Below, piece by piece: positions 4,112 through 59,306 of a DNA stretch of 64,000 bases (position 1 is its first letter; each line of letters opens with the position of its first letter). This stretch comes from Mayamaea pseudoterrestris. Its lineage: Eukaryota. Location: NCBI GenBank assembly GCA_027923505.1, contig BROI01000027.1, positions 62,001 to 126,000 on the forward strand. Direction: 5' to 3'. Position numbers and translations under genes: made by a program. A model generated the notes under the pieces. The model saw only the letters and a program-made list of their open reading frames with translations. It did no database searches and was not told the DNA's origin.

Positions 4112-4543
4112 ATTACCGATGTCCACGGAACGTATCTAATAGTCGAATGAAGTGAAGGAAAATGGCCGAGTCGTTTGCTCTCACCTCTCCGGCTGTCGGA
4201 GATCAGAGTGAGGCAGCCTCAAGACGTTCCGCCGCGCTCACGTAAGCTCAGTACCGTTAGCTACATGCCAAGACCTGCACGCGCACTAACATGTGCCTAC
4301 TCGTAGAATGCCGAACGACGCCCACCATAGTCGTACACCATAAATGGAAGGCAGTCAGTCATGCTTCAACGTCATTGCCCCCGAACAGCTGACTTGTGCG
4401 TCAACAATGCTATGTACTGTACAGGGGGGAACAATAACAGCAGGTTGCAAACGAAAAACAGCAACTGCAGCGGTACCTTTACTTGTCATAGTGCATGGTG
4501 CCTTGTATGCAGGAAATAGTAAACATGCAGACAAGAAAGAAGC

Positions 4544-4604
4544 AGCATGATTAGAGTGATATAACCAGTTATCCTCGGTTTGATTCCGAGGCATGCTACT
4601 TTTT
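4544..4604 (+). pseudogene. tRNA-like remnant (acceptor stem + T-arm/B-box + oligo-T), lacking an intact D/anticodon arm
   Basis: CTCGG-TTTGATT-CCGAG forms a 5-bp stem with a 7-nt loop and matches the B-box GGTTCGATTCC except one C>T. AGCATG (4544) can pair with CATGCT (4592-4597). TTTTT follows at 4600-4604. At ~55 nt it is too short for a full tRNA. Confidence 0.25.
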
Positions 4605-4729
4605 AGGGGATAGTGTGACTACATTTCATTGCATACCTGTTAATAATGACGTCAATGCTATACTGTCCTCTACCCATCTATTCTATTGACAACTAACTTT
4701 GATCTCAACTTAGGATTCATACAAACATT

Positions 4730-5100
4730 GTATGTGGGTTGCAATGGCATGCTTAAAACCATGTTGGCAAGGTTGAACCATCATACAAATCCCAACTGAA
4801 AATGAGCTGCATTTGGCCACTTGGAGGAATCTAATTGTCTCCATCTACCATGGCAACTAACTGAATGGCTGCTGTTTTCAATATCAGTGAGGGTTGTGGA
4901 GAAAAGTTCCGGATATGATGGCAAGGTAGGATCAGTTCACAAATCCCATCTGATAGTTTGGAGTGTTTGACCTTTTGGAGGAAAACTTACTTACCATAAT
5001 CATATTTACTGACTGATTTTCAAACATCTTATCATTAGAGCTATACATACACCTTATGAGAAATGCAATGGCATGCTCAGAATCATGTTGGTAAGATTGA
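4730..5100 (+). repeat. Diverged copy of satellite family E (369-bp unit)
   Basis: Shares tgcaatggcatgct...caaggttgaa...cccaactgaaa and aatcccatctgatagtttg...actgactgat with 25885-26611 and 38582-39322. Confidence 0.75.
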
Positions 5101-5154
5101 ACAAAGTTCAGGCGGTCCTAGTGGCAGAGTTGGGTTGGGATACTGAATGGGCTT

Positions 5155-5430
5155 GAAATGAAAGCATTGCACTTTCTACATCATGATACACTGCCTATCA
5201 ACTGCCAGCCATCAATGTATATAACATTGGCATTTTGAGTGGGTCATGGTAGCCTGCTACTATGGACAAGCCAGATGGTCCTACTGGCATGACTTAGGAA
5301 CAAGGTAGGCTAGAGATGAATGCATTGCACTTTCTACATCATGAAACAATGCCTGTCAGCTGCCAGCCATCAATGTATACAACATTGGCCGTTGGAGGGG
5401 GTCATGGCAGCCTGCTATTATGGACAAGTT
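5155..5430 (+). repeat. Two-copy direct repeat, period ~158 bp (family X)
   Basis: cattgcactttctacatcatga...ctgccagccatcaatgtat...tatggacaag occurs at ~5165 and ~5323. Confidence 0.85.
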
Positions 5431-5464
5431 TGGGGCCACAAAATTCAGCCAGTCCAAATGGCAG

Positions 5465-6452
5465 AACATCCATAGCTGACTACTAGCAGCCGCTGTATGG
5501 GAGGGCACTTCAGACATCCACACAGGAACCAGCACCATGGTGCTACCGGTACAGTGCATGGCCTTCCAAATCTACTCCCAATTTTTCTCCATCAATCCTG
5601 TTTGGCTATGCTTGGGGACATGCCTGCGGTGAGATTGGTGAAAAAAATCATCCATAGCGGATTCCTAGCAGCTACGGTATGGGAGGGCAGTTCAGACATT
5701 TACACAGGAACCAGCACCATGGCGCTACAGTGCATGGCATTCAAACCTTACCCCAATTGTAGTCTTGCTCCATCAATTCCATTTGGCTATGCTTGATAAC
5801 ATGCTTGCAGTGAGATTGGTAAAAATTATCCATAGCTGTTTCCAAGCAGCTATGGTATGGGAGGGCAGTTCAGACATTTACACAGGAGCCAGCACCATGG
5901 CGCTACAGTGCATGGCATTCAAACCTTACCCCAATTGTAGTCTTGCTCCATCAATTCCATTTGGCTATGCTTGATAACATGCTTGCAGTGAGATTGGTAA
6001 AAAAACATCCATAGCTGTTTCCAAGCAGCTATGGTATGGGAGGGCAGTTCAGACATTTACACAAGAACCAGCACCATGGCGCTACAGTGCATGGCATTCA
6101 AACCTTATCCCAATTGTATTCTTGCTCCATCAATTCCATTTGGCTATGCTTGATATCATGCTTGCAGTGAGATTGGTAAAAAACATCCATAGCTGTTTCC
6201 AAGCAGCTATGGTATGGGTGGACAATTCAGACATCCACACATGAACCAGCTCCAAGTGCATGGCCTAATTGTAGTATTGCTCATCAATCCTGTATTGCTA
6301 TGCTTGGGGACATGCTTGCGGTGAGATTGGTGCAAAAAATTCATCCATAGTGAATTTCTAGCAGCTATGGTATGGGAGGGCAATCCAGACATCCACACAG
6401 GTACTGCAATATGGTGCTACAGTGCATGGCCTTCCAAACCTACCCCCAATTG
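5465..6452 (+). repeat. Satellite family A, ~179-bp monomer, ~5.5 copies
   Basis: Anchor gtatggg recurs at 5495, 5677, 5855, 6034, 6212 and 6370. Confidence 0.95.
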
Positions 6453-6454
6453 TC

Positions 6455-9400
6455 ATGTATACATTGTGTAAAGGTGGCAATGGCTGAAAAGGCAATAAGG
6501 GCCATAGTTTGACTGGTTCGGATTCATAGACTGCGCTTATGTTCTATCTGGCCCATTTACTCCCACAGCCTTTCCAAAACTTGAGCTTGCCAGATTCGTT
6601 TGTGTTTGTTGGCCTCATTGATAGCTTGGCCAATGGTGGCAATGTTGGTAAGTGATGGGGATGCCCAGCGGACCTGGTGGTGTGATGTGGCGACATACGG
6701 GATACTTAGCTATGTGGAAGCTAGCATGTCTACTCACAAAACTAAACGGATTTGCATAACCGCCAAGGTTGTAGAGGTTGATTGACCTTACCAAAAGCTT
6801 TTTGAAAGGTGGGAATGCTTCCAATGAGGGGGACGGCCTAAGTTCTGTGGGTGCTGCCACTGCTGCTGCGGGACATACGGTCGCACAAAATACAGCGTAT
6901 CTACTCCTGTTTTGCCAGGAACACATAAGTTGTCCAACATTGTATGTGTCATAGTACCTCATGTATACCCTGTTGAAAGGTGGCAATGGCTAAAAAGACA
7001 ATCACAGCCATAGTTTGATTGGTTCGGATTCATAGACTGCGGCCAGATTCGTTTGTGTTTGTTGGCCTAATTGATAGCTTGGCCAATGGTGGCAATGTTG
7101 GTAAGTGATGGGGATGCCCAGCGGACCTGGTGGTGTGATGTGGCGACATACGGGATACTTAGCTATGTGGAAGCTAGCATGTCTACTCACAAAACTAAAC
7201 GGATTTGCATAACCGCCAAGGTTGTAGAGGTTGATTGACCTTACCAAAAGCTTTTTGAAAGGTGGGAATGCTTCCAATGAGGGGGACGGCCTAAGTTCTG
7301 TGGGTGCTGCCACTGCTGCTGCGGGACATACGGTCGCACAAAATACAGCGTATCTACTCCTGTTTTGCCAGGAACACATAAGTTGTCCAACATTGTATGT
7401 GTCATAGTACCTCATGTATACCCTGTTGAAAGGTGGCAATGGCTAAAAAGACAATCACAGCCATAGTTTGATTGGTTCGGATTCATAGACTGCGCTGTTG
7501 TTCTATTTGGCCCATCTACTCCCACAGCTTTCCCAAAACTTGAGCTTGCCAGGTTTATTTGTCTTTGTAGGCCTCATGGATAGCTTCGCTGATGGTGGCA
7601 ATGTTGGTAATTGATGGGGATGCCCAGTGGACCTGGTGGTGTAGTGTGGTGACATACGGGATACTTAGCTATGTGGAAGCAAGCATGTCTACTCCCAAAT
7701 CTTGAAGGATTTGCATGACCACCAAGGTTGTAGTGGATGATTGACTTTATAAAAAGTTTTTTGAAAGGTGGGAATGCTTCACATGATGGGGATGGCCAAT
7801 TTATGCAGGTGCTGCCGCTGCTGCTGTGTGACATACAGTCGCACAAAATACAGTATATCTACTCCTGTTTTGCCAGGAACACATGAGTTGTCCAACATTG
7901 AATGAGTCATAGCTGCTCACGTATATCTTGTTGAAAGGTGGCATTGGCTAAAATGACAGTCAGAGCCATAGTTTGATTGGTTTGGATTCATAGACTGCGC
8001 TGTTGTTCTATTTGGCCCATCTACTCCCACAACTTTCCCAAAACTGGAGCTTGCCAGGTTTGTTTGGTTTTGTTGGCCTCATTGATTGCTTGGCCAATGG
8101 TGGCAATGTTGGTAATTGATGGGGATGCCCAGCGGACCTGGTGGTGTGATGTGGCGACATACGGGATACTTAGCTATGTGGAAGCTAGCATGTCTACTCA
8201 CAAAACATAAAGGATTTGCATAACCGCCAAGGTTGTAGAGGTTGATTGACCTTACCAAAAGCTTTTTGAAAGGTGGGAATGCTTCAAATGACGGGGACGA
8301 CCTAAGTTCTGTGGGTGCTGCCGCTGCTGCTGCGGGGCATATGGTCGCACAAAATACAGCGTATCTACTCCTGTTTTGCCAGGAACCCATAAGTTGTCCA
8401 ACATTGTATGTGTCATAGTACCTCATGTATACCCTGTTGAAAGGTGGCAATGGCTAAAAAGACAATCACAGCCATAGTTTGATTGGTTCGGACTCATAGA
8501 CTGCGCTGTTGTTCTATTTGGTCCATCTACTCCCACAGCTTTCCCAAAACTTGAGCTTGCCAGGTTTGTTTGTCTTTGTTGGCCTCATTGATAGCTTGGC
8601 CAATGGTGGCAATGTTGGTAATTGATGGGGATGCCCAGTTCACCCAGCAGACCTGGTGGTGTGATGTGGCGACATACGGGATACTTAGCTATGTGGAAGC
8701 TAGCATATCTACTCACAAAACTTAAAAGATTTGCATAACCGCCAAGATTGTAAAGGTTGATTGACCTTACCAAAACCTTTTGAAAGGTGGGAATGATTCA
8801 AATGAGGGGGACGGCCTAGTTCTGTGGGTGCTGCCGCTGCTGCTGCGGGACATACGGTCGCCCAAAATACAGCGTATCTACTCCTGTTTTGCCAGGAACA
8901 CATAAGTTGTCCAACATTGTATGTGTCATAGTACCTCATGTATACCCTGTTGAAAGGTGGCAATGGCTAAAAAGACAATCACAGCCATAGTTTGATTGGT
9001 TCGGATTCATAGACTGCGCTGTTGTTCTATTTGGCCCATCTACTCCCACAGCTTTCCCAAAACTTGAGCTTGCCAGGTTTGTTTGTCTTTGTAGGCCTCA
9101 TGGATAGCTTGGCCGATGGTGGCAATGTTGGTAATTGATGGGGATGCCCAGCGGACCTGGTGGTGTAGTGTGGTGACATACGGGATACTTAGCTATGTGG
9201 AAGCAAGCATGTCTACTCCCAAATCTTGAAGGATTTGCATGACCACCAAGGTTGTAGTGGATGATTGACTTTATAAAAAGTTTTTTGAAAGGTGGGAATG
9301 CTTCACATGATGGGGATGGCCAAAGTTTTGCAGGTGCTGCCGCTGCTGCTGTGTGACATACAGTCGCACAAAATACAGTATATCTACTCCTGTTTTGCCA

Positions 9401-10320
9401 GGAACACATGAGTTGACCAACATTGAATGAGTCATAGTTGCTCACGTATATCTTGTTGAAAGGTGGCATTTGCTAAAATGACAGTCAGAGCCATAGTTTG
9501 ATTGGTTTGGATTCATAGACTGCGCTGTTGTTCTATTTGGCCTATCTACTCCCACAGCTTTCCCAAAACTTGAGTTTGCCAGGTTTGTTTGTCTTTGTAG
9601 GCCTCATTGATAGCTTGGCCAATGGTGGCAATGTTGGTAATTGATGGGGATGCCCAGCGGACCTGGTGGTGTGATGTGGCGACATACGGGATACTTAGCT
9701 ATGTGGAAGCTAGCATGTCTACTCACAAAACATAAAGGATTTGCATGACCGCCAAGGTTGAAGTGGATGATTGACTTTATAAAAAGCTTTTTGAAAGGTG
9801 GGAATGCTTCACATGATGGGGATGGCCAAAGTTTTGCGGGTGCTGCCGCTGCTGCTGTGTGACATACAGTCGCACAAAATACAGTATATCTACTCCTGTT
9901 TTGCCAGGAACACATGAGTTGACCAACATTGAATGAGTAATAGTTGCTCACGTATATCTTGTTGAAAGGTGGCATTTGCTATAATGACAGTCAGAGCCAC
10001 AGTTTGATTGGTTTGGATTCATAGACTGCGCTGTTGTTCTATTTGGCCCATCTACTCCCACAGCTTTTTCAAAACTTGAGCTTGCCAGATTTGTTTGGTT
10101 TTGTTGGCCTCATTATGGTGGGGGGGCATGTTGGTGATTGGGGGATGCCCAGCGGACCTGGGTGTGTGCGTTGGCCTCATTGATAGCTTGGCCAATGGTG
10201 GCAATGTTGGTAATTGATGGGGATGCCCAGCGGACCTGGTGGTGTGATGTGGCGACATACGGGATACTTAGCTATGTGGAAGCTAGCATGTCTACTCACA
10301 AAACTTAAGGGATTTGCATA
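6455..10320 (+). repeat. Satellite family B, ~506-bp unit (trimer of diverged 162/173/171-bp subunits), ~7.5 copies
   Basis: aaggtggca anchor near 6471, 6977, 7430, 7935, 8441, 8954, 9460 and 9966. The internal motifs ggtgg(c/g)aatg and tctactc recur at 162/173/171-bp spacing. Confidence 0.95.
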
Positions 10321-10321
10321 A

Positions 10322-11388
10322 CTTATGGAATCATACTACTACAATGCCCCGTGCCCTGATCACCCAACAACCCAATGAGTCATGCAAAACATGTCCAGGG
10401 TGTGCCATTGACATGAGGATGGTCTGGCATGGTGCAAAACGGACTGCCTTGAGGCCTACAGCATGGAATGATCTGCAAGATGGGTGTGGCCAACACCCCA
10501 AATTATGGAACCATACCACTACAATGCCCCATGCCCTGGCCAACCAACAACCCAAGGAGTCAGGCAAAACATGTCCAGGGTGTGCCATTGACATGAGGAT
10601 GGTCTGAAATGGTGCAAAAGAGACTGCCTGGAGGCCTACACCCTCTGCAAATTGGGTGTGGCCAACACCCCAAATTATGGAATCGTACCACTACAATGCC
10701 CCATGCCCTGATAACCCAACAACCCAATGAGTCATGCAAAACATGTCCAGGGTGTGCCATTGACATGAGGATGTTCTGACATGGTGCAAAACAGTCTGCC
10801 TAGAGGCCTACAGCATGGAATGGTCTGCAAGATGGGTGTGGCCAACACCCCAAATTATGGAATCATACCACTACAATGCCCCATGCCCTGGAAACCCAAC
10901 AACCCAATGAGTCATGCAAAACATGTCCAGGGTGTGCCATTGACATGAGGATGGTCTGACATGGTGCAAAACGGACTGCCTGGAGGCCTACAGCATGAAA
11001 TGGTCTGCAAGATGGGTGTGGCCAACACCCCAAATAATGGAATCATACCACTACAATGCCCCATGCCCTGGCCACCCAACAACCCAATGAGTCAGGCAAA
11101 ACATGTTCAGGGTGTGCCATTGACATGAGGATGGTCTGACATGGTGCCAAACGGACTGCCTGGAGGCCTACACCATCTGCAAAATGGGTGTGGCCAACAC
11201 CCAAATTATGGAATCATACCACTACAATGCCCTGTGCCCTGATCACCCAACAACCCAATGAGTCATGCAAAACATGTCAAGGGGGTGATTTGACATGAGG
11301 ATGGTCTGACATGGTGCAAAACGGACTGCCTGGAGGCCTACAGCATGGAATGGTCTGCAAGATGGGTGTGGCCAACACCCTAAATTAT
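10322..11388 (+). repeat. Satellite family C, ~180-bp monomer (172-bp deletion variants), ~6 copies
   Basis: ttatggaatcataccactacaatgcccc recurs every 171-180 bp. Confidence 0.95.
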
Positions 11389-14300
11389 GAGACTGGTGAC
11401 AAGTTGTCACCAAATACATTGCCATCCCCTGAGACACCAGCCAAGCCTACCATCTTGTAGCGCAGCCTGAATAAGGATGTTGGCACCATTCTGGTGTATT
11501 TTGGGCACCTACAGCGCTTGCTGTAGGGGTGTATGATTGTCATGGTGTTTGTGGGCTGAGACTGGTGACAAGTTGTCACCAAATACATTGCCATCCCTTG
11601 AGACACCAGCCAAGCCTACCATCTTGTAGCGCAGCCTGAATGATGATGTTGGCACTATTCTGGTGTATTTTGGGCACCTACAGGGCTTGCTGTAGGGGCA
11701 TTTGAATGTCATGGCATCTGCGGGCTGAGACTGGTGACAAGTTGTCACCAAATACATTGCCATGCCCTGAGACACCAGCCAAGCCTACCATCTTGTAGCG
11801 CAGCCTCAATAAGGATGGTGGCACCATTCTGGTGAATTTTGGGCACCTACTGGGCTTGCTGTAGGAGCGTTTGAATGTCACAGCATCTGCAGGCTGAGAT
11901 TGGTGACAAGTTGTCACCAAATACATTGCCATCCCCTGAGACGCCAGCCAAGCCTACCATCTTGTAGCGCAGCCTGAATTATGATGTTGGCACCATTCTG
12001 GTGTATTTTGGGCACCTACAGGGCTTGCTGTAGGGGCGTTTGAATGTCACAGCATCTGCGGGCTGAGACTGGTGACAAGTTGTCACCAAATACATTGCCA
12101 TCCCCTGAGACACCAGCCAAGCCTACCATCTTGTAGCGCAGCCTGAATAATGATGTTGGCACCATTCTGGTGTATTGTGGGCACCTACAGGGCTTGCTGT
12201 AGGGGCATTTGAATGTCACGGCATCGGCGGGCTGAGACTGGTGACAAGTTGTCACCAAATACATTGCCATGCCCTGAGACACCCGTCAATCCAACCATCT
12301 TGTAGCGCAGCCTGAATTATGATGTTGGCACCATTCTGGTGTATTTTGGGCACCTACAGGGCTTGCTGTAGGGGTGTATGATTGTCATGGTGTTTGTGGG
12401 CTGAGACTGGTGACAAGTTGTCACCAAATACATTGCCATCCCTTGAGACACCAGCCAAGCCTACCATCTTGTAGCGCAGCCTGAATAAGGATGTTGGCAC
12501 TATTTTGGTGTATTTTGGGCACCTACAGGGCTTGCTGTAGGGGCATTTGAATGTCATGGCATCTGCGGGCTGAGACTGGTGACAAGTTGTCACCAAATAC
12601 ATTGCCATCCTGTGAGACACCAGCCAAGCCTACCATCTTGTAGCGCAGCCTGAATAATGATGTTGGCACCATTCTGGTGTATTTTGGGCACCTACAGGGC
12701 TTGCTGTAGGGGCGTTTGAATGTCACGGCATCTGCGGGCTGAGACTGGTGACAAGTTGTCACCAAATACATTGCCATCCCCTGAGACAACAGTCAAGCCT
12801 TCCATTTTGTAGCGCAGCCTGAATAATGATGTTGGCACCATTCTGGTGTATTTTGGGCACCTACAGGGCTTGCTGTAGGGGCGTTTGAATGTCACGGCAT
12901 TCGCGGGCTGAGACTGGTGACAAGTTGTCACCAAATACATTGCCATCCCCTGAGACACCAGCCAAGCCTACCATTTTGTAGCGCAGGCTAAATATTGATG
13001 TTGTCACCATTCTGGTGTATTTTGGGCACCTACAGGGCTTGCTGTAGGGGCGTTTGAATGTCACAGCATTTGCGGGCTGAGACTGGTGACAAGTTGTCAC
13101 CAAATGCATTGCCATCCTGTGAGACACCAGCCAAGCCTACCATCTTGTAGCGCAGCCTGAATAATGATGTTGACACCATTCTGGTGTAATTTGGGCACCT
13201 ACAGGGCTTGCTGTAGGGGGGTTGAATGTCACGGCATTTGCGGGCTGAGACTGGTGACAAGTTGTCACCAAATACATTGCCATCCCCTGAGACACCAGCC
13301 AAGCCTACCATCTTGTAGCGCAGCCTGAATAATGATGTTGGCACCATTCTGGTGTATTTTGGGCACCTACAGGGCTTGCTGGAGGGGCGTTTGAATGTCA
13401 CGGCATCTGCGGGCTGAGACTGGTGACAAGTTGTCACCAAATACATTGCCATCCCCTGAGACACCAGCCAAGCCTACCATCTTGTAGCGCAGCCTGAATA
13501 ATGATGTTGGCACCATTCTGGTGTATTTTGGGCACCTACAGGGCTTGCTGTAGGGGCGTTTGAATGTCACGGCATTCGCGGGCTGAGACTGGTGACAAGT
13601 TGTCACCAAATACATTGCCATCCCCTGAGACACCAGCCAAGCCTACCATCTTGTAGCGCAGCCTGAATAATGATGTTGGCACCATTCTGGTGTATTTTGG
13701 GCACCTACAGGGCTTGCTGTAGGGGCGTTTGAATGTCACAGCATTTGCGGGCTGAGACTGGTGACAAGTTGTCACCAAATACATTGCCATCCCCTGAGAC
13801 ACCAGCCAAGCCTACCATCTTGTAGCGCAGCCTGAATAATGATGTTGGCACCATTCTGGTGTATTTTGGGCACCTACAGGGCTTGCTGTAGGGGCGTTTG
13901 AATGTCACAGCATTTGCGGGCTGAGACTGGTGACAAGTTGTCACCAAATGCATTGCCATCCTGTGAGACACCAGCCAAGCCTACCATCTTGTAGCGCAGC
14001 CTGAATAATGATGTTGGCACCATTCTGGTGTATTTTGGGCACCTACAGGGCTTGCTGTAGGGGCGTTTGAATGTCACGGCATTTGCGGGCTGAGACTGGT
14101 GACAAGTTGTCACCAAATACATTGCCATCCCCTGAGACACCAGCCAAGCCTACCATCTTGTAGCGCAGCCTGAATAATGAGGTTGGCACCATTCTGGTGT
14201 ATTTTGGGCACCTACAGGGCTTGCTGTAGGGGCGTTTGAATGTCACGGCATCTGCGGGCTGAGACTGGTGACAAGTTGTCACCAAATACATTGCCATCCC

Positions 14301-25712: not shown

Positions 25713-25713
25713 A

Positions 25714-25860
25714 CACCATGGAATGGTCTGCAGGCTGGGTGTGGTGACAAGTTATGGAGTCATACCACCAATGCCCCAACGGCCATCCAACAATCCAATG
25801 AGTCACGGCAATGCCGTTGCCATTGTGCAGAACAAGTGCAGGTCTGCCTGGGGCTGACAT
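25714..25860 (+). repeat. Degenerate single copy of family C on the right side of array D
   Basis: catggaatggtctgca..gggtgtgg..ttatggagtcataccac..aatgcccc..ccaacaatccaatgagtca aligns by eye with the family C monomer. Confidence 0.8.
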
Positions 25861-25884
25861 GGGTTACGGCCCCAGCTGTGGGTG

Positions 25885-26611
25885 TTGGATCATTACATAA
25901 ATCCCATCTGAAAGTTTGATGTGGTTGACCACTTGAAGGAACCTACTTGCTACAATCACGCACATCCACTGACTGATGTGCTTCCTTTTTGGACCATCTC
26001 AGCCTTTGACTTTGTCAAACAACTTATGCTGATTGCAATGGCATGCTCAGAATAATGCTAGCAAGGTTGAATTGTCACACTAAACCCAACTGAAAGTTTG
26101 CTGTGTTTGCCACATGGTAAAGCCTACTTGTCTCAGTCTCGGTTGCACTGCAGCCACTGACTGAACTGCTGCCGTTTTCAAAGATCCAAGCTTGGACCTC
26201 GTCAAGTACCGTCTGCAGATTGCAGTTGCAAGTTCGGATTCATGGTGACAAGTTTGGATCATTTCATAAATCCCATCTGAAAGTTTGATGTGGTTGACCA
26301 CTTGAAGGAACCTACTTGCTACAATCACGCACATCCACTGACTGATGTGCTTCCATTTTGGACCATCTCAGCCTTTGACTTTGTCAAACAACTTTTTCTG
26401 ATTGCAATGGCATGCTCAGAATAATGCTAGCAAGGTTGGATTATCACACTAAACTCAACTGAAAGTTTGATGTGTTTGCCACATGGTAAAGCCTACTTGT
26501 CTCAGTCTCGGTTGCACCACAGCCACTGACTGAACTGCTGCCGTTTTCAAAGATCCAAGCCTTGGACCTTGTCAAGTATCAACTGCAGATTGCAGTTGCA
26601 GGTTTGGATTC
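25885..26611 (+). repeat. Satellite family E, 369-bp unit (dimer of diverged ~185-bp halves), 2 copies
   Basis: tcccatctgaaagtttg occurs at 25902 and 26271. The halves share aatcccatctgaaagtttgatgtggttgaccac and aaacccaactgaaagtttgctgtgtttgccac. Confidence 0.9.
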
Positions 26612-29600: not shown

Positions 29601-32600
29601 TTGGACCAATAGTCATGTCAATTTTGGTGTGGAACGCAGCATTGTGCCATGAGACTGCGCACATTCAACAAGTTGTTGAATGTGCTAGCAGTGCACCCTT
29701 TTTGGCTATAGGATCATCAGCCTTGCCTGCTAAGCCATCCAACCCCTTTCCACTAATGTTTGTTGACATTTTGAGCCAATGCTGGGGTGACTATCACCCC
29801 AATATCCACCAGCCTGGCTGCCATGGTGAGACTCAGCAGATCCAATAAGTTGTTGGATCTGCCAGTGGTGCACCTCAGCTGGTACACAGACAGCCAGAAT
29901 GGCCTGCAGACCAAAGAATATTAAAACCAAAATACATATGATACAATTGGACCAATAGTCATGTCAATTTTGGTGTGGAACGCAGCATTGTGCCATGAGA
30001 CTGCGCACATTCAACAAGTTGTTGAATGTGCTAGCAGTGCACCCTTTTTGGCTTTAGGATCATCAGCCTTGCCTGCTAAGCCATCCAACCCCTTTCCACT
30101 AACCTGCTAAGCCATCCAACCCCTTTCCACTAATGTTTGTTGATATTTTGGTCCAATGCTGGGGTGACTATCACCCCAATATCCACCAGCCTGGCTGCCA
30201 TGGTGAGACTCAGCAGATCCAATAACTTGTTGGATCTGCCAGCGGTGCACCTCAGCTGGTACACAGACAGCCAGGATGGCCTGCAGACCCAAGAATATCA
30301 AAACCAAAATACATATGATACAATTGGACCAATAGTCATATCAATTGTGGTGTGGAACGCAGCATTGTGCCATGAGGCTGCGCACATTCAACAAGTTGTT
30401 GAATGTGCTAGCAGTGAACCATGCTTTAACTACAGGATCATCAATCTTGCCTGCTAAGCCATCCAACTTGTTTCCTATGATGTTGGTTGATATTTTGGTC
30501 CAATGCTGGGGTAACTATCACCCCAATATCCACCAGCCTGGCTGCCATGGTGAGACTCAGCAGATCCAATAAGTTGTTGGATCTGCCAGTGGTGCACCTC
30601 AGCTGGTACACAGACAGCCAGAATGGCCTGCAGACCCAAGAATATCATAACCAAAATACATATGATACAATTGGACCAATAGGCATGTCAATTGTGGTGT
30701 GGAACGCAGCATTGTGCCATGAGACTGCGCACATTCAACAAGTTGTTGAATGTGCTAGCAGTGCACCCATTTTGGCTTTAGGATCATCAGCCTTGCCTGC
30801 TAAGCCATCCAACCCCTTTCCATTATTGTTTGTTGACATTTTGAGCCAATGCTGGGGTGACTATCACCCCAATATCCACCAGCCTGGCTGCCATGGTGAG
30901 ACTCAGCAGATCCAATAAGTTGTTGGATCTGCCAGTGGTGCACCTCAGCTGGTACACAGACAGCCAGAATGGCCTGCAGACCAAAGAATATCAAAACCAA
31001 AATACATATGATACAATTGGACCAATAGTCATGTCAATTGTGGTGTGGAACGCAGCATTGTGCCATGAGACTGCGCACATTCAACAAGTTGTTGAATGTG
31101 CTAGCAGTGAACCATGCTTTAACTACAGGATCATCAATCTTGCCTGCTAAGCCATCCAACCTGTTTCCTATGATGTTGGTTGATATTTTGATCCAATGCT
31201 GGGGTGACTATCACCCCAATATCCACCAGCCTGGCTGCCATGGTGAGACTCAGCAGATCCAATAAGTTGTTGGATCTGCCAGTGGTGCACCTCAGCTGGT
31301 ACACAGACAGCCAGAATGGCCTGCAGACCCAAGCATATCATAACCAAAATACATATGATACAATTGGACCAATAGGCATGTCAATTGTGGTGTGGAACGC
31401 AGCATTGTGCCATGAGACTGCGCACATTCAACAAGTTGTTGAATGTGCTAGCAGTGCACCCTTTTTGGCTTTAGGATCATCAGCCTTGCCCGCTAAGCCA
31501 TCCAACCCCTTTCCATTAATGTTTGTTGACATTTTGAGCCAATGCTGGGGTGACTATCACCCCAATATCCACCAGCCTGGCTGCCATGGTGAGACTCGGC
31601 AGATCCAATAAGTTGTTGGATCTGCCAGTGGTGCACCTCAGCTGGTACACAGACAGCCAGGATGGCCTGCAGACCAAAGAATATCAAAACCAAAATACAT
31701 ATGATACAATTGGACCAATAGTCATGTCAATTGTGGTGTGGAACGCAGCATTGTGCCATGAGACTGCGCACATTCAACAAGTTGTTGAATGTGCTAGCAG
31801 TGCACCATGCTTTAACTACAGGATCATCAGTCTTGCCTGCTAAGCCATCTAACCCCTTTCCACTAATGTTGGTTAATATTTTGATCCAATGCTGGGGTGA
31901 CTAACACCCCAATATCCACCAGCCTGTCTGCCATGGTGGGACTGAGCACCTCCAACAACTTGTTGGATATGCCAGTGGTGCACCTCAGGTGGCAACCAGA
32001 CTGCCAGAATGGCCTGCAGACCCAAGAATATCATAACCAAAATACATATGATACAATTGGACCAATAGTCATGTCAATTTTGGTGTGGAACGCAGCATTG
32101 TGCCATGAGACTGCGCACATTCAACAAGTTGTTGAATGTGCTAGCAGTGCACCCTTTTTGGCTATAGGATCATCAGCCTTGCCTGCTAAGCCATCCAACC
32201 CCTTTCCACTAATGTTTGTTGACATTTTGATCCAATGCTGGGGTGACTATCACCCCAATATCCACCAGCCTGGCTGCCATGGTGAGACTCGGCAGATCCA
32301 ATAAGTTGTTGGATCTGCCAGTGGTGCACCTCAGCTGGTACACAGACAGCCAGGATGGCCTGCAGACCAAAGAATATCAAAACCAAAATACATATGATAC
32401 AATTGGACCAATAGTCATGTCAATTTTGGTGTGGAACGCAGCATTGTGCCATGAGACTGCGCACATTCAACAAGTCGTTGAATGTGCTAGCAGTGAGCCA
32501 TGCTTTAACTACGGGATCATCAGCCTTACCTGCTAAGCCATTCAACCTGTTTCCTATGATGTTTGTTGACATTTTGAGCCAATGCTGGGGTGACTATCAC

Positions 32601-33591
32601 CCCAATATCCACCAGCCTGGCTGCCATGGTGAGACTTGGCAGATCAAATAAGTTGTTGGATCTGCCAGCGGTGCACCTCAGCTGGTACACAGACTGCCAG
32701 GATGGCAACCAAAGAATATCATAACCAAAATACATATGATACAATTGGACCAATAGTCATGTCAATTTTGGTGTGGAACGCAGCATTGTGCCATGAGACT
32801 GCGCACATTCAACAACTTGTTGAATGTGCTAGCAGTGCATCCTTTTTGGCTATAGGATCATCAGCCTTGCCTGCTAAGCCTTCCAACCCCTTTCCACTAA
32901 TGTTTGTTGACATTTTGAGCCAATGCTGGGGTGACTATCACCCCAATATCCACCAGCCTGGCTGCCATGGTGAGACTCGGCAGATCCAATAAGTTGTTGG
33001 ATCTGCCAGTGGTGCACCTCAGCTGGTACACAGACAGCCAGAATGGCCTGCAGACCAAAGAATATCATAACCAAAATACATATGATACAATTGGACCAAT
33101 AGTCATGTCAATTTTGGTGTGGAACGCAGCATTGTGCCATGAGACTGCGCACATTCAACAAGTTGTTGAATGTGCTAGCAGTGCACCCTTTTTGGCTATA
33201 GGATCATCAGCCTTGCCTGCTAAGCCATCCAACCCCTTTCCACTAATGTTTGTTGACATTTTGAGCCAATGCTGGGGTGACTATCACCCCAATATCCACC
33301 AGCCTGGCTGCCATGGTGAGACTCAGCAGATCCAATAAGTTGTTGGATCTGCCAGTGGTGCACCTCAGCTGGTACACAGACAGCCAGAATGGCCTGCAGA
33401 CCAAAGAATATTAAAACCAAAATACATATGATACAATTGGACCAATAGTCATGTCAATTTTGGTGTGGAACACAGCATTGTGCCATGAGACTGCGCACAT
33501 TCAACAAGTTGTTGAATGTGCTAGCAGTGCACCCTTTTTGGCTTTAGGATCATCAGCCTTGCCTGCTAAGCCATCCAACCCCTTTCCACTA
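26612..33591 (+). repeat. Near-perfect 3490-bp tandem duplication inside array F (26612-30101 vs 30102-33591)
   Basis: All ORF-track entries and rare variants recur at +3490. I noticed one difference: cgcagc at 29981 vs cacagc at 33471. Confidence 0.9.
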
Positions 33592-36500
33592 ATGTTTGTT
33601 GACATTATGAGCCAATGCTGGGGTGACTATCACCCCAATATCCACCAGCCTGGCTGCCATGGTGAGACTCAGCAGATCCAATAAGTTGTTGGATCTGCCA
33701 GTAGTGCACCTCCGCTGGTACACAGACTGCCAGAATGGCCTGCAGACCCAAGAATAACCAAAACCAAAATACATTTGGACCAATAGTCATGTCAATTGTG
33801 GTGTGGAACGCAGCATTGTGCCATGAGACTGCGCACATTCAACAAGTTGTTGAATGTGCTAGCAGTGCACCCTTTTGGCTATAGGATCATCAGCCTTGCC
33901 TGCTAAGCCATCCAAGCCCTTTCCAGGCATGCTGGGGTGACTATCACCCCAATATCTACCAGCCTGGCTGCCATGGTGAGACTCAGCAGATCCAATAAGT
34001 TGTTGGATCTGCCAGTGCTGCACCTCAGCTGGTACACAGACAGCCAGAATGGCCTGCAGACCCAAGAATATCATAACCAAAATACATATGATACAATTGG
34101 ACCAATAGTCATGTCAATTTTGGTGTGGAACGCAGCATTGTGCCATGAGACTGCGCACATTCAACAAGTTGTTGAATGTGCTAGCAGTGCACCCTTTTTG
34201 GCTATAGGATCATCAGCCTTGCCTGCTAAGCCATCCAACCCCTTTCCACTAATGTTGGTTGATATTTTGGTCCAATGCTGGGGTGACTATCACACCAATA
34301 TCCACCAGCCTGGCTGCCATGGTGAGCCTCAGCAGATCCAATAAGTTGTTGGATCTGCCAGTGGTGCACCTCAGCTGGTACACAGACAGCCAGAATGGCC
34401 TGCAGACCCAAGAATATCAAAACCAAAATACATATGATACAATTGGACCAATAGTCATGTCAATTTTGGTGTGGAACGCAGCATTGTGCCATGAGACTCT
34501 GCACATTCAACAAGTTGTTGAATGTGCTAGCAGTGCACCCTTTTTGGCTATAGGATCATCAGCCTTGCCTGCTAAGCCATCCAACCCCTTTCCACTTAAT
34601 GTTGTTGACATGATGGTGACTATCACCCCAATATCCACCAGCCTGGCTGCCATGGTGAGACTCAGCAGATCCAATAAGTTGTTGGATCTGCCAGTGGTGC
34701 ACCTCAGCTGGTACACAGACAGCCAGAATGGCCTGCAGACCCAAGAATATCATAACCAAAATACATATGATACAATTGGACCAATAGTCATGTCAATTTT
34801 GGTGTGGAACGCAGCATTGTGCCATGAGACTGCGCACATTCAACAAGTTGTTGAATGTGCTAGCAGTGCACCCTTTTTGGCTATAGGATCATCAGCCTTG
34901 CCTGCTAAGCCATCCAACCTGTTTCCTATGATGTTGGTTGATATTTTGATCCAATGCTGGGGTGACTATCACCCCAATATCCACCAGCCTGGCTGCCATG
35001 GTGAGACTCGGCAGATCCAATAAGTTGTTGGATCTGCCAGTGGTGCACCTCAGCTGGTACACAGACAGCCAGAATGGCCTGCAGACCCAAGAATATCATA
35101 ACCAAAATACATATGATACAATTGGACCAATAGTCATGTCAATTTTGGTGTGGAACGCAGCATTGTGCCATGAGACTGCGCACATTCAACAAGTTGTTGA
35201 ATGTGCTAGCAGTGCATCCTTTTTGGCTATAGGATCATCAGCCTTGCCTGCTAAGCCATCCAACCCCTTTCCATTAATGTTTGTTGACATTATGAGCCAT
35301 TGCTGGGGTGACTATCACCCCAATATCCACCAGCCTGGCTGCCATGGTGAGACTCAGCAGATCCAATAAGTTGTTGGATCTGCCAGTAGTGCACCTCCGC
35401 TGGTACACAGACAGCCAGAATGGCCTGCAGACCCAAGAATATCATAACCAAAATACACATGATACAATTGGACCAATAGTCATGTCAATTTTGGTGTGGA
35501 ACGCAGCATTGTGCCATGAGACTGCGCACATTCAACAAGTTGTTGAATGTGCTAGCAGTGCACCCTTTTTGGCTATAGGATCATCAGCCTTGCCTGCTAA
35601 GCCTTCCAACCCCTTTCCACTAATGTTTGTTGACATTTTGAGCCAATGCTGGGGTGACTATCACCCCAATATCTACCAGCCTGGCTGCCATGGTGAGACT
35701 CGGCAGATCCAATAAGTTTTTGGATCTGCCAGTGGTGCACCTCAGCTGGTACACAGACAGCCAGGATGGCCTGCAGACCAAAGAATATCAAAACCAAAAT
35801 ACATATGAAACAATTGGACCAATAGTCATGTCAATTTTGGTGTGGAACGCAGCATTGTGCCATGAGACTGCGCACATTCAACAAGTTGTTGAATGTGCTA
35901 GCAGTGCATCCTTTTTGGCTATAGGATCATCAGCCTTGCCTGCTAAGCCTTCCAACCCCTTTCCACTAATGTTTGTTGACATTTTGAGCCAATGCTGGGG
36001 TGACTATCACCCCAATATCTACCAGCCTGGCTGCCATGGTGAGACTCAGCAGATCCAATAAGTTGTTGGATCTGCCAGTGCTGCACCTCAGCTGGTACAC
36101 AGACAGCCAGAATGGCCTGCAGACCCAAGAATATCAAAACCAAAATACATTTGATACAATTGGACCAATAGTCATGTCAATTGTGGTGTGGAACGCAGCA
36201 TTGTGCCATGAGACTGCGCACATTCAACAAGTTGTTGAACGTGCTAGCAGTGAACCATGCTTTAACTACAGGATCATCAATCTTGCCTGCTAAGCCATCC
36301 AACCTGTTTCCTATGATGTTGGTTGATATTTTGATCCAATGCTGGGGTGACTATCACCCCAATATCCACCAGCCTGGCTGCCATGGTGAGACTCGGCAGA
36401 TCCAATAAGTTGTTGGATCTGCCAGTGGTGCACCTCAGCTGGTACACAGACAGCCAGAATGGCCTGCAGACCCAAGAATATCAAAACCAAAATACATATG

Positions 36501-38580
36501 ATACAATTGGACCAATAGTCATGTCAATTTTGGTGTGGAACGCAGCATTGTGCCATGAGACTGCGCACATTCAACAAGTTGTTGAATGTGCTAGCAGTGA
36601 GCCATGCTTTAACTACAGGATCATCAGCCTTGCCTGCTAAGCCATCCAACCCCTTTCCACTAATGTTTGTTGATATTTTCATCCAATGCTGGGGGTGACT
36701 ATCACCCCAATATCCACCAGCCTGGCTGCCATGTTGAGACTCGGCAGATCCAATAACTTGTTGGATCTGCCAGCGGTGCACCTCAGCTGGTACACAGACC
36801 GCCAGAATGGCCTGCAGACCAAAGAATATCATAACCAAAATACATATGATACAATTGGACCAATAGTCATGTCAATTGTGGTGTGAAACGCAGCATTGTG
36901 CCATGAGACTGCGCACATTCAACAAGTTGTTGAATGTGCTAGCAGTGCATCCTTTTTGGCTATAGGATCATCAGCCTTGCCTGCTAAGCCATCCCACCTG
37001 TCTCCTATGATGTTGGTTGATATTTTGATCCAATGCTGGGGTGACTATCACCCCAATATCCACCAGCCTGACTGCCATGGTGAGACTCAGCAGATCCAAT
37101 AAGTTGTTGGATCTGCCAGTGGTGCACCTCAGCTGGTACACAGACAGCCAGAATGGCCTGCAGACCAAAGAATATCAAAACCAAAATACATATGATACTA
37201 TTGGACCATAAGACATGTCAATTTTGGTGTGGAACGCAGCATTGTGCCATGAGACTCTGCACTTTCAACAAGTTGTTGAATGTGCTAGCAGTGAGCCATG
37301 CTTTAACTACAGGATCATCAGCCTTGCCTGCTAAGCCATCCAACCCCTTTCCACTAATGTTTGTTGATATTTTGATCCAATGCTGGGGGTGACTATCACC
37401 CCAATATCCACCAGCCTGGCTGCCATGGTGAGACTCGGCAGATCCAATAACTTGTTGGATCTGCCAGTGGTGCACCTCAGCTGGTACACAGACAGCCAGA
37501 ATGGCCTGCAGACCAAAGAATTTAAAAACCAAAATAGATTTGATACAATTGGACCAATAGTCATGTCAATTGTGGTGTGGAACGCAGCATTGTGCCATGA
37601 GACTGCGCACATTCAACAAGTTGTTGAATGTGCTAGCAGTGCACCCTTTTTGGCTATAGGATCATCAGCCTTGCCTGCTAAGCCTTCCAATCCCTTTCCA
37701 CTAATGTTTGTTGACATTTTGAGCCAATGCTGGGGTGACTATCACCCCAATATCCACCAGCCTGGCTGCCATGGTGAAACTTGGCAGATCAAATAACTTG
37801 TTGGATCTGCCAGTGGTGCACCTCAGCTGGTACACAGACCACCAGGATGGCCTGCAGACCCAAGAATATCATAACCAAAATAGATTTGATACAATTGGAC
37901 CAATAGTCATGTCAATTGTGGTGTGGAACGCAGCATTGTGCCATGAAACTGCGCACATTCAACAAGTTGTTGAATGTGCTAGCAGTGCACCCTTTTTGGC
38001 TATAGGATCATCAGCCTTGCCTGCTAAGCCTTCCAATCCCTTTCCACTAATGTTTGTTGACATTTTGAGACAATGCTGGGGTGACTATCACCCCAATATC
38101 CACCAGCCTGGCTGCCGTGGTGAGACTCGGCAGATCCAATAAGTTGTTGGATCTGCCAGTGGTGCACCTCAGCTGGTACACAGACTGCCAGAATGGCCTG
38201 CAGACCCAAGAATATCATAACCAAATTACACATGATACAATTGGACCAATAGTCATGTCAATTTTGGTGTGGAACGCAGCATTGTGCCATGAGACTGCGC
38301 ACATTCAACAAGTTGTTGAATGTGTTAGCAGTGCACCCTTTTTGGCTATAGGATCATCAGCCTTGCCTGCTAAGCCATCCAACCTGTTTCCTATGATGTT
38401 GGTTGATATTTTGATCCAATGCTGGGGTGACTATCACCCCAATATCCACCAGCCTGGCTGCCATGGTGAGCTCGGGTCATAAGTTGTTGGATCTGCCAGT
38501 GCACCTCAGCGGTACACGAGAGATGGCCTGCACCGACAAAACCAAAATACATATGATACAATTGGACCAATAGTCATGTA
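26612..38580 (+). repeat. Satellite family F, 346/347-bp unit (dimer of 169+177-bp halves), ~34-35 copies
   Basis: The unit recurs every 346-347 bp. The halves share aagttgttg(g/a)at(c/g)tgc..gtgcacc, with dyad centres at 27083, 27252 and 27429. Confidence 0.99.
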
Positions 38581-38581
38581 A

Positions 38582-39322
38582 ATGGTGACAAGGTTGGATC
38601 ATTTCATTAATCCCATCTGATAGTTTGATGTGGTTGACCACTTGGAGGAACCTACTTGCTACAATCATGCACATCCACTGACTGATGTGCTTCCTTTTTG
38701 GACCATCTCAGCCTTTGACTTTGTCAAACAACTTACGCTGATTGCAATGGCATGCTCAGAATAATGCTAGCAAGGTTGGATTGTCACATTAAACCCAACT
38801 GAAAGTTTGCTGTGTTTGCCACATGGTAAAGCCTACTTGTCTCAGTCTCGGTTGCACCGCAGCCACTGACTGAACTGCTGCCGTTTTCAAAGATCCAAGC
38901 CTTGGACCTTGTCAAGTACCATCTGCAGATTGCAGTTGCAGGTTTGGATTCATGGTGACAAGGTTGGTTCATTACATAAATCTTATCTGAAATATTGATG
39001 TGGTTGACCACTTGGAGGAATCTACTTGCTACAATCATGCACATCCACTGACTGATGTGCTTCCTTTTTGGACCATCTCAGCCTTTGACTTTGTCAAACA
39101 ACTTATGCTGATTGCAATGGCATGCTCAGAATAATGCTAGCAAGGTTATATTATCACACTAAACCCAACTGAAAGATTGCTGTGTCTGCCACATGGTAAA
39201 CCCTACTTGTCTCAGTCTCAGTTGCACAGCAGCCATTGACTGAATTGCTGCTGTTTTTAGAGATCCAAGCCTTGGACCTTGTCAAGCACCGTCTGCAAAT
39301 TACAGTTGCAGGTTTGGATTCA
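38582..39322 (+). repeat. Satellite family E, 2 further copies, same orientation as 25885-26611
   Basis: Near-identical to the E units on the left of array F. Confidence 0.92.
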
Positions 39323-39324
39323 TA

Positions 39325-40030
39325 GACTCAACGTCCCAACAACTTGTTGGATCTGCTAGCAGTGCACCTCAAGTGGCACTTCAGACTGCCAGAATGGCCT
39401 ATCAATTCTGTAATACAAAAACATTGTGTTTCAAATTGAATGGGACTCAAAGGCTTGTCATCTTGGGTGTGGAACCCATCCCTTTGCCATGAGACTCCGC
39501 ACATTCAACCAATGGTTGAATGTGCCAGCGGTGCACCCTTTTTGGCTACAGGAATCATCAGTGCTGCGTTCTAAGCCCTGAAAGCCTTTCCAATTCAAGT
39601 ATGGTGTCATGATGGGCCAATGATTTGGTCAGTTGCACCCATTCCAGTCTCCACCACCATGTATGCCATGGTGAGACTCAGCTTGCAGATCCAAAAACTT
39701 GTTGGATCTGCTAGCAGTGCACCTCAAGTGGCACTTCAGACTGCCTGCATGGCCTGCCAATACTGGAATACAATGAGCATTGTGGTTTTCATTCATTAAG
39801 GACTCAAAGGCTTTGCTTGTCACATTAGGTATGGAACCCATCCCTTGGCCATGAGACTTTGCACATTCAACCAATAGTTGAATGTGCCAGCGGTGCACCA
39901 TTTTTGGCTACAGGGATCTTCAGTGCAGCCTTCTGAGCCCTGAAATCCTTTCCAATTCATGTGTGTGTCATGATGAGCCAATGATTTGGTCAGTTGCACC
40001 CATTCCAGTCTCCACCACCATGTATGCCAT
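39325..40030 (+). repeat. Family G: diverged relative of F, ~355-bp unit, 2 copies
   Basis: aacttgttggatctgctagcagtgcacctc occurs at 39341 and 39696. The gccatgagact..gcacattcaac..gttgaatgtgc..gtgcacc segment is retained. Confidence 0.88.
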
Positions 40031-40034
40031 TGTG

Positions 40035-40875
40035 AAATGTCCATACCTTGAGCCATGTGTATGCCCAGATCAAGCTTGAATGGTGCTAACATCCTTATTT
40101 CAGATGAGCTACAAGATAAGTGGCCTGGCTGGCCCCTCGGTAGACTGCAATGTGACTGGTGTGAAATTCTCACCAGTCTCAGCCAGCAGATGTCGAAATT
40201 TTCAAATGTCCATACCTGAGCCATGTGTATGCCCAAATCAAGCCAGAATATTGCTAACATCCTTATTTCAGATGCGCTACAAGATGTTTTGCCTGGCTGG
40301 TCCCTCAAGGGATTGCAATGTGACTGGTGAGAAGTTCTCACCAGTCTCAGCCAGCAGATGCTGTTATATTTGAAATTCCCCCATACCTTGAGCCATGTGT
40401 ATGCCCAAATCAAGCCAGAATGGTGCTAACATTTTTATTTCAGATGCGCTACAAGATGGTTTGCCTGGCTGGTCCCTTGGTAGACTGCAATGTGATTGGT
40501 GGCAACTTGTCACCAGTCTCAGCCAGCAGATGCCGTAATTTTCAAATGTCCACACCGTGAGCCATGTGTATGCCCAAATCAAGCCAGAATGGTGCTAACA
40601 TCCTTATTTCAGATGCGCTACAAGTCAACTTTACAGGATAGTGTCTCCGTGGACTGAAATGTGATTGGTGACAACTTGTCACCAGTCGCAGCCAGCAGAT
40701 GCCATGCCCATACCTTGAGCCATGTCTATGCCCAAACCAAGCCAGAATGGTGCTAACATTCTTATTTTCGGTGCACTAAAATTGGATTGCCTGGCTGGTC
40801 CCTCGGTAGACTGCAATGTGACTGGTGAGAAGTTCTCACCAGTCTCAGCCAGCAGATGCCGTAATTTTTAAATGT
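40035..40875 (-). repeat. Family H: diverged, inverted copies of family D (~170 bp), ~5 copies
   Basis: ccagaatggtgctaacatccttatttcagatgcgctacaagatgg..caacttgtcaccagtctcagccagcagatgccg aligns with the reverse complement of the D monomer. Confidence 0.9.
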
Positions 40876-40876
40876 G

Positions 40877-41768
40877 TCAATCCTGTTTGGCTATGCTTGG
40901 AAACATGCTTGCGGTGAGATTGATGCATAAAAAATATCCATAGCTGATTTTTAGCAGCTACGGTATGGGAGGGCAGTTCCTACATTTACACAGGAACCAG
41001 CTCCATGGTGCTACAGTGCATGGCCTTTCAAACCTACCCTCAATTATAGTCTTGCTCCATCAATCCTGTTTGGCTATGCTTGGGGGCATGCTTGCAATGA
41101 GATTGGTGCAAAAAAGTTATCCATAGCGGATTCCTAGCAGCTACAGTATGGGAGGGCAGTTCAGACTACATACAGGAACCAGCTCCATGGTGCTACAGTG
41201 CATGGCCTTCCAAACCTATCCCCAATTGTAGTCTTGCTCCATCAATCCTGTTTGGCTATGCTTGAGGATATGCTTGCAATGAGATTGGTGCAAAAAAATT
41301 ATCCATAGCAGATTCCTAGCAGCTACAGTATGGGAGGGCAGGGCAGACATCCACACAGGAACCAGTTCCATGGTGCTACAGTGCATGGCCTTTCAAACCT
41401 ACCCTCAATTATAGTCTTGCTCCATCAATCCTGTTTGGCTATGCTTGGGGACATGCTTGCGGTGATCCATAGCATATTCCTAGCAGCTACAATTTGGGAG
41501 GGGCAGGGCAGACATCCACACAGGAACCAGCTCCATGGTGCTACAGTGCATGGCCTTTGCAAACATCAGATCTGTTGCGCTATGCTTGGTGACATGTTTG
41601 CAGTGAGATTGGTGCCAAAAAAAGTTTAGCTGACTTCAAGCAGCCATTGTATGGGAGGGCAGGGCAGACATCTCCACAGGAACCAGCTTCATGGTGCTAC
41701 ATTGCATGGCCTTCGCAAACATCGGATCTGTGTGGCTATGGTTGGGGATTTGTTTGCAGTGAGATTGG
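40877..41768 (+). repeat. Satellite family A, ~5 copies, same orientation as 5465-6452
   Basis: Same monomer as the left A block: tcaatcctgtttggctatgcttgg..gagattgg..gtatgggagggcag..caggaaccagctccatggtgctacagtgcatggcc. Confidence 0.93.
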
Positions 41769-41855
41769 TTACAGTAGTAAACTCCTACGAAGTCAATGAA
41801 ATTACTCCACATCAACCTTCGGCCATTATATTTATGCTACTTGAGTTTTAATTGA

Positions 41856-58958: not shown

Positions 58959-58978
58959 ACGCGTGCTCCGCGAGGCAC

Positions 58979-59141: not shown

Positions 59142-59306
59142 GGTTATTGACGACGTGAGTCGAAGCGACACGAGTGAGCGCTCGCGCTTCATCTCGACGC
59201 CAAGTCTCGACCATGACGATGGTGCCAACAAAGTTGCGCACATTACACTGTAATTTATAGCTGTATTATATACTTAATGTGCACATAAACAATCATCTTG
59301 TCATTC

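Follow-up and report, generated by a model that had tools for sequence, protein, structure and literature searches.

A 37-kb CpG-depleted satellite island in Mayamaea pseudoterrestris, a probable outpost of a genome-wide heterochromatic satellite compartment

Background

The 171-bp alpha satellite of human and the 178-bp CEN repeat of Arabidopsis underlie satellite-type regional centromeres, and the knobs of maize contain a 180-bp knob repeat together with the 350-bp repeat TR-1. Here we describe an uninterrupted block of tandem arrays with units of similar length in a 64,000-nucleotide stretch of Mayamaea pseudoterrestris (GenBank assembly GCA_027923505.1, contig BROI01000027.1, positions 62,001 to 126,000), referred to as the window, in which all positions below are counted.

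Such a block contrasts with what has been described for model diatoms, which possess compact genomes, tiny repeat-free AT-rich centromeres and methylated islands made of transposons (10.1101/096016, PMC9998398). The centromeres of Phaeodactylum tricornutum correspond to chromatin immunoprecipitation (ChIP) peaks of 2.4–5.6 kb, have a low GC content and "lack repeats" (10.1101/096016), and the predicted centromeres of Fistulifera solaris span 1.4–2 kb with 36–42% GC and no highly repeated elements (10.1101/2021.11.10.468027). The CG-methylated islands of diatoms consist of transposons and repeats and often lie near telomeres (PMC9998398). Among other stramenopiles, Phytophthora parasitica carries the abundant tandem families PpSat1 and PpSat2 (PMC7290008), Ectocarpus has a 98-bp subtelomeric satellite with telomere motifs, its centromeres being marked by long terminal repeat (LTR) elements (PMC11541908), and the centromeres of Phytophthora sojae are marked by transposons (PMC7082073). 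In the searched passages of a preprint that presents a 325-species atlas, neither stramenopiles nor diatoms are mentioned (10.64898/2026.09.17.752431).

An earlier, sequence-only reading of the window had described the block as a layered satellite island and had proposed that it is a candidate satellite-type centromere or heterochromatin domain. In our interpretation it is probably a methylated satellite island of the constitutive-heterochromatin type, a small outpost of a genome-wide satellite compartment in a genome resembling those of raphid pennate diatoms. Nothing at the locus marks the island out as a kinetochore site. The evidence that carries this interpretation comes from the structure of the arrays, their depletion in CpG and the abundance of the families in sequencing read sets.

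Structure of the island

Tandem arrays fill the window from 4.5 to 41.8 kb without interruption and form a mosaic, as revealed by Tandem Repeats Finder (TRF) and BLAST; nine of the arrays, lying from 5.4 to 41.5 kb, were reported by TRF. The order of the arrays was defined using BLAST, by comparing one reference unit per array with the window and the segments all against all. This order, E'-S-A1-X-C-D(x85)-C' fragment-E1-F(x35)-E2-G-H-A2 (Table 1), matches that of the sequence-only reading, with only names swapped, since our S and X were there called "X" and "B". The number of families is about seven, with cross-family BLAST matches at E<1e-3 found for the named pairs only. A1 and A2 are direct partners with 80% identity over 871 bp, E1 and E2 are collinear (94% over 694 bp), and C and C' show 77% identity. 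A refinement concerns G and H, to which separate labels had been given: G is a relative of F, and H an inverted relative of D.

Table 1. Positions of the arrays, of the CpG-depleted domain and of the adjoining features in the window
Feature	Position	Strand	Unit and copies	Remarks
Left flanking open reading frame (ORF)	2363–4126	-		587 amino acids; no Pfam family; CpG observed/expected ratio normal
Left border zone	4196–4738			CpG density drops, last dense CpGs at ~4470
CpG-depleted domain	4500–41800			coincides with the block
E'	4739–5099	+		relic of family E, 65–72% identity to E
S	5100–5464	+	158 bp x ~2.2	
A1	5465–6451	+	178 bp x ~5.5	TRF 178 bp x 4.4 at 5465–6254
X	6452–10322	+	~506 bp x 7.6	one 453-bp variant; internal period of ~171 bp
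TRF repeat inside X	6589–7494		453 bp x 2.0	
C	10323–11387	+	180 bp x 6	TRF x 6.0 at 10323–11389
D	11388–25712	+	169 bp x 84.9 (x85)	TRF 95% matches
C' fragment and short spacer	25713–25883	+		~100 bp, 77% identical to C
E1	25884–26611	+	182 bp x ~4	TRF x 3.3 at 25884–26482, 70%
F	26612–38587	+	346 bp x 35	TRF x 34.7 at 26613–38583, 92%
E2	38588–39323	+		second copy of the E block; TRF 370 bp x 2.0 at 38582–39323
G	39324–40034	+		diverged F, 70% over 576 bp; a 135-bp part of G is repeated
H	40035–40876	-	169 bp x 5	TRF 80%; inverted diverged D (74%)
A2	40877–41769	+	183 bp x ~5	TRF x 3.2 at 40877–41460
Aldo/keto-reductase gene	41856–43276	-		3' end ~86 bp from the last A2 unit

The base period is ~158–185 bp in every family, the 346-bp unit of F being a dimer and the 506-bp unit of X a trimer. 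The two halves of the F unit (169 + 177 bp) are 59% identical, at z=6.6 and with a score reached by none of 300 shuffles. In the X unit, a circular autocorrelation of 0.348, against 0.252 ± 0.022, reveals the internal 171-bp period, and two thirds of the unit align at z=6.1. Given the dimeric structure of F and the period of X, all seven families share the period of 158–185 bp, and the "nucleosome-sized units" noted earlier are a general property of the block. Between D and the F halves no clear relation was detected (z ≤ 2.5), and a 10-bp WW periodicity is absent from the D and F consensus sequences.

The earlier description of a gene-free block within gene-dense DNA holds. The non-redundant parts of the block contain 63 stop-to-stop ORFs of at least 60 amino acids, of which 25 were scanned; none reached a Pfam curated cut-off, two sub-threshold matches being spurious. 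In the right flank (22 kb), by comparison, nine of the ten long ORFs scanned possess Pfam domains. An Rfam search gave no match at the gathering score in the whole window.

CpG depletion and the footprint of methylation

The CpG observed/expected ratio lies between 0.07 and 0.39 in all 12 island segments, against 1.04 and 1.06 in the two flanks and 0.83 in the left border zone. GpC is normal in the island segments, and TpG/CpA is raised (1.48–1.88 vs 1.23 in the flanks). Of the overlapping 1-kb windows, 74 have a ratio below 0.6; they follow one another without a gap from 4501 to ~42000, with none outside the block, and the borders of this domain are sharp, lying within a few hundred bases of both flanking genes.

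The D array permits the changes themselves to be inspected. Among its 85 units, all eight CpG positions show C>T or G>A changes, compared with 34 of the 80 other C/G positions; transitions amount to 8.0 per CpG site vs 1.24 per other C/G site, figures which count sequences and not events. To judge by these patterns, the CpG depletion and the CpG-biased changes in D are the footprint of 5-methylcytosine deamination and thus a sign of long-term methylation. They lend support to the heterochromatin half of the earlier proposal, and the island would have been CG-methylated and silent over a long time.

Abundance of the families in read sets

The abundance of the families was estimated from the Logan contigs of four sequencing runs (X1, X2, X3 and X17), which were placed on positions 2300–11750, the left quarter, and whose word depths were summed. 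Runs X1 and X17 stem from different studies and each contains half or more of the sampled words; 90,683 of 555,133 contigs were placed for X1 and 46,277 of 560,787 for X17. The depths are compiled in Table 2.

Table 2. Summed word depths of contigs placed on the left quarter
Stretch	Run X1	Run X17	Relative to flank
Flank-gene bins	100–169 (mean ~143)	0–5.9 (~4–5)	1x
E'	193	4.8	1.0–1.35x
S bin	93,834	3,944	~650–800x
A1	630–5,876	47–218	
Family X	619–15,877	66–1,753	
C bins	0.83–3.2 million	0.14–0.43 million	5,800–22,000x in X1
D bin	6.58 million	555,209	~4.6 x 10^4 (X1), ~10^5 (X17)

In both read sets C and D reach about 10^4–10^5 times the depth of the flanking genes, which is to be taken as an order of magnitude since summed depth is not copy number. 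D is the most abundant family within the mapped stretch. The 85 D units of the island would give no more than ~85 times the flank, so that the excess is at least several hundred-fold in both data sets, and the D array described here accounts for at most about 0.2% of the D signal. It follows from the excess that the island carries well under 1% of the C and D copies and that D must form far larger arrays, or occupy many more loci, elsewhere; if all D lay in islands like this one, several hundred of them or more would be needed. Taken at face value, the depths correspond to D sequences of the order of 10 Mb, and a large share of the genome apparently consists of the core families. The island would accordingly be pictured as a small, fully assembled outpost, and most of the satellite sequence would lie in far larger arrays at other places. 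E', at single-copy depth, is specific to the locus.

Several side observations were made during these searches. Runs X2 and X3, which belong to the study of X1 and carry other organism labels, contain C and D, over positions 10200–11750, at ~0.3% and 0.02% of the X1 depth with almost no cover of the flank, and one 151-nt contig of X2 is identical to the flank gene at a depth of 3. We make no claim that the satellites are shared across species, as these signals are indistinguishable from carry-over between libraries. Ten metagenome runs from rhizosphere, soil, leaf litter or plants have 5–10% of the sampled words, which is no evidence of habitat. In metagenome contigs a 21-base motif of D was found at 57 loci, with one match each; BLAST with the families recovered the motif alone and no satellite.

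A protein-database search with an ORF of the D array gave a single match, P0046 (208 amino acids), which corresponds to another D-like array, translated in three frames, whose period is 339 nt. With tblastn, 119 of 130 segments matched by P0046 lie on D, the best with 75% identity over 207 amino acids. Since P0046 is recorded as a protein, D-like satellite arrays have been annotated as proteins in some source. The corresponding search with an ORF of the F array gave no match among 590 candidates, which is no evidence on the abundance of F.

Age structure and turnover

The D array is homogeneous throughout, the mean identity between units being 95.0–95.5% at each lag from 1 to 20. No higher-order period was detected, identity being flat against lag, nor any multi-unit self-match of at least 600 bp at 99% identity or more. 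Compared with the consensus, units in the centre of the array show 98–100% identity and those at its edges 84–91%.

The F array alternates weakly, with an identity of 91.5% at lag 2 vs 90.0% at lag 1, and contains a large tandem duplication. Positions 26612–30102 and 30102–33592, ten units, differ by one mismatch in 3491 bp; the first copy begins exactly at the E1/F boundary, and a 31-bp x 2 repeat at 30072–30133 marks the junction. The duplication is either a very recent event or an error of assembly.

TRF gave 95% matches for D and 92% for F vs 70–90% for the short arrays, and the earlier contrast between homogeneous central and diverged peripheral arrays is thus roughly borne out. That the short diverged arrays stand as direct pairs around the long ones (A1/A2, E1/E2, C/C') fits an expansion of young arrays inside old ones. 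Growth and turnover of the island probably proceed through unequal exchange and through tandem duplication of segments, D and F being young arrays that expanded within older ones whose remains now flank them (A...A, E...E, C...C' and the relics G and H).

Palindromes in D and F

The D unit contains a perfect 19-bp palindrome, TGGTGACAAGTTGTCACCA, with 9-bp arms, a length reached by one of 200 shuffles. It is intact in 84 of the 85 D units and is among the eight least variable of 169 windows, with 0.11 non-consensus letters per column where the array as a whole has a mean of 2.39. In H it is exact in one of the five units and has one mismatch in another, and residues encoding it are present in all four units of P0046. 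Such an invariant element might be constrained as a protein-binding or cruciform-forming site, or might be a site favoured by amplification.

Two palindromes centred on AAGTTG occur in the F unit, and arms of 13 bp were reached by none of 200 shuffles; these palindromes are no more conserved than the rest of F. The short families have no palindromes beyond chance. The palindrome centres of D and F have the 9-mer ACAAGTTGT in common, which by a rough estimate is within chance for such lengths and serves merely as a lead.

Nature of the island

Several considerations weigh against the interpretation of the block as a heterochromatic outpost. In plants and animals, satellite centromeres are likewise methylated and contain no genes, so that heterochromatin is compatible with a centromere, and as a rule of thumb the most abundant satellite of ~170 bp in a genome is often the centromeric one. 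CpG depletion records past methylation and not the present state of the chromatin. The abundance data cover the left quarter of the block, from E' to the start of D; summed contig depths differ from copy numbers, sequencing-error variants inflate the number of contigs, and no library type is recorded for the runs. Finally, since the 99.97% F duplicate could be an assembly error, the array lengths are uncertain.

The foremost alternative, which we regard as unlikely, is that the island is a functional satellite-type regional centromere or its immediate pericentromere, with CENH3 nucleosomes on the homogeneous D and/or F arrays and older arrays pushed outward by layered expansion. Gene-free arrays of near-nucleosome unit length, long and homogeneous (85 D units at 95%, 35 F units at 92%), with older, diverged flanks in symmetric pairs, are what it would lead one to expect, and the abundance of D, the dyad kept in 84 of its 85 units and the significant F palindrome with its 13-bp arms speak for it as well. 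The window contains no competing candidate of the Phaeodactylum type: none of 639 100-bp boxes has a GC content of 32% or less, the minimum being 33%. The literature searched in full text, which lacked most subscription journals, describes no satellite centromere in a diatom, so that this reading is open and not contradicted. Against it, the array described here represents ~0.2% or less of the D signal, and the main arrays must lie elsewhere, possibly on the same chromosome; the GC content of the block, 46–52%, is like that of the flanks, with 0.454–0.523 in the 2-kb windows of the whole stretch; and the diatom centromeres cited above are short, low in GC and repeat-free in P. tricornutum (10.1101/096016) and are predicted at 36–42% GC without highly repeated elements in F. 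solaris (10.1101/2021.11.10.468027). The view is moreover limited to 64 kb of a 423,632-bp contig.

The depths of C and D also bear on the number of such loci. At 10^4–10^5 times the flank, they do not fit an arrangement with one 37-kb island per chromosome; one much larger array per chromosome could agree with them. That D is the centromeric satellite of this diatom lineage is in our estimation doubtful. In its favour, D is the dominant ~170-bp repeat and its nearly invariant palindrome recurs in P0046 and in H. Were it so, the island would count as a small centromere or else as an outpost, pericentromeric or ectopic, and the D palindrome would be a CENP-B-box-like or cruciform element.

An improbable alternative, drawn by analogy with the 180-bp and 350-bp repeats of maize knobs, is that the satellite block, knob-like or otherwise non-centromeric, acts in its own right, for instance as a neocentromere in meiotic drive, as a pairing site or as an element of replication timing. 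It would agree with the two long arrays of ~170-bp and 2 x 170-bp units, with the interstitial position between genes on both sides and without telomere repeats, and with the great abundance of the families in the genome. The likeness is one of unit length alone, however, and nothing separates the block from passive heterochromatin.

There is also a slight chance that an assembly artefact accounts in part for how large the block is and how it is ordered internally, with satellite reads collapsed, duplicated or misjoined. The 3,491-bp F tandem duplicate with its single mismatch would be explained in this way, and families as abundant as C and D are prone to mis-joins. The block lies, however, inside a 423,632-bp contig, and mis-assembly would hardly yield divergence that is graded in order or CpG borders that are sharp at the two flanking genes. 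In addition, two other data sets reproduce the left border: the succession gene-E'-S is spanned by contigs of two independent studies (X1 record 4, at 4765–5337, and X17 records 11 and 13), so that the block, as far as the left quarter (2300–11750) is concerned, is not peculiar to one assembly.

Very improbable, lastly, is a derivation of the block from a mobile element, as its interior or a remnant (Helitron- or LTR-carried arrays), or from ribosomal-spacer-type sub-repeats. In favour of it, the block stands between the direct repeats A1 and A2 (80% over 871 bp) and the border zone at 4196–4738 is repeated 10–175x in the read sets, but A1 and A2 are themselves tandem arrays and not LTRs, terminal inverted repeats or other terminal repeats, the single-copy depth of E' shows that the whole block is not a multi-copy element, and neither a transposon nor any other Pfam domain was found above the curated cut-off in the 25 ORFs, nor an rRNA, tRNA or other Rfam family in the window. 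The possibility raised earlier that the block might prove to be the interior of a known transposon thus receives no support from Pfam or Rfam. Against a subtelomeric satellite, protein-coding genes flank the block left and right and the window lacks any CCCTAA or TTAGGG dimer, and the lack of Rfam matches in all 64 kb speaks against sub-repeats of a ribosomal DNA spacer.

Flanking regions

The left border zone lies upstream of the left flanking ORF and before the first recognisable satellite. It shows 10–175 times the flank depth in both read sets, with no tandem structure and no Pfam match, and could represent a dispersed repeat, or a piece of a transposon, at the edge of the island.

On the right, the aldo/keto-reductase gene consists of two overlapping ORFs in different frames (41856–42464 and 42458–43276), which could reflect a short intron or a frameshift. 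The genes of the right flank further include a SLAC1-type channel, an ABC-2 transporter, two M43 peptidases, and JmjC/F-box, SnoaL and PAN2-like proteins. The two M43-type metallopeptidase ORFs are arranged head to head (51059–52294 on the minus and 52898–54265 on the plus strand) and are probably a local gene duplication. The closest homologs of the PAN2-like ORF (59298–63689) are in raphid pennate diatoms, namely Amphora coffeaeformis (47%), Seminavis robusta (43%) and Nitzschia inconspicua (42%). Directly upstream of it is a cluster of small tandem repeats at 58762–59141 (42 bp x 4.7, 51 bp x 2.1 and 44 bp x 2.0), which are unrelated to the families of the island.

Significance

As far as its sequence permits it to be classified, the island appears to be an object of a kind known from plants and animals, for which we found no description from a diatom. 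A full-text literature search, which lacked most subscription journals, recovered neither diatom satellite arrays nor satellite centromeres. A diatom satellite centromere would therefore be new; if D is centromeric, diatoms and, to our knowledge, stramenopiles would thereby have their first regional centromere based on satellites, and the short AT-rich centromere of Phaeodactylum would not be general for diatoms. For the design of episomes and artificial chromosomes there is a warning here, in that the low-GC centromere rule may not extend to all diatoms. The island provides a system for asking whether satellite heterochromatin, and possibly satellite centromeres, arose in diatoms, how methylation of the DNMT5 type treats satellites, and what the conserved D palindrome binds.

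Comparison with known systems

With the satellite centromeres of human and Arabidopsis the island shares monomers of about nucleosome length, long homogeneous arrays, older diverged flanks, the lack of genes and dyad symmetries inside the monomers, as well as, to judge from its mutational footprint, probable past methylation. It differs from them in combining seven unrelated families within 37 kb, in the lack of a higher-order period in D and in the length of its arrays, 12–14 kb here vs hundreds of kilobases to megabases. With the centromeres of P. tricornutum, the only ones known to be ChIP-mapped in a diatom, and of F. solaris it has in common an intergenic position in a gene-dense pennate diatom genome; in contrast to the Phaeodactylum type, the block consists entirely of tandem repeats and its GC content is 46–52%.

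Like the satellites of Phytophthora and Ectocarpus, the families are abundant tandem repeats of unknown role in a stramenopile genome. Unlike the Ectocarpus satellite they are not accompanied by telomere repeats, and the centromeres of Ectocarpus and the oomycetes are rich in transposons. The resemblance to the knobs of maize lies in an interstitial block which pairs a satellite of ~170–180 bp with one of ~350 bp, an analogy of unit length alone.

The methylated islands of diatoms resemble the present one in being isolated and sharp-edged within CpG-normal, gene-dense surroundings, and the mutational signature of the present one is that of CG methylation. They differ from it in composition and position, the block being interstitial and made up of satellites alone, with no transposon domain. 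It may thus represent an "isolated methylated island" of the diatom type, built of satellites in place of transposons.

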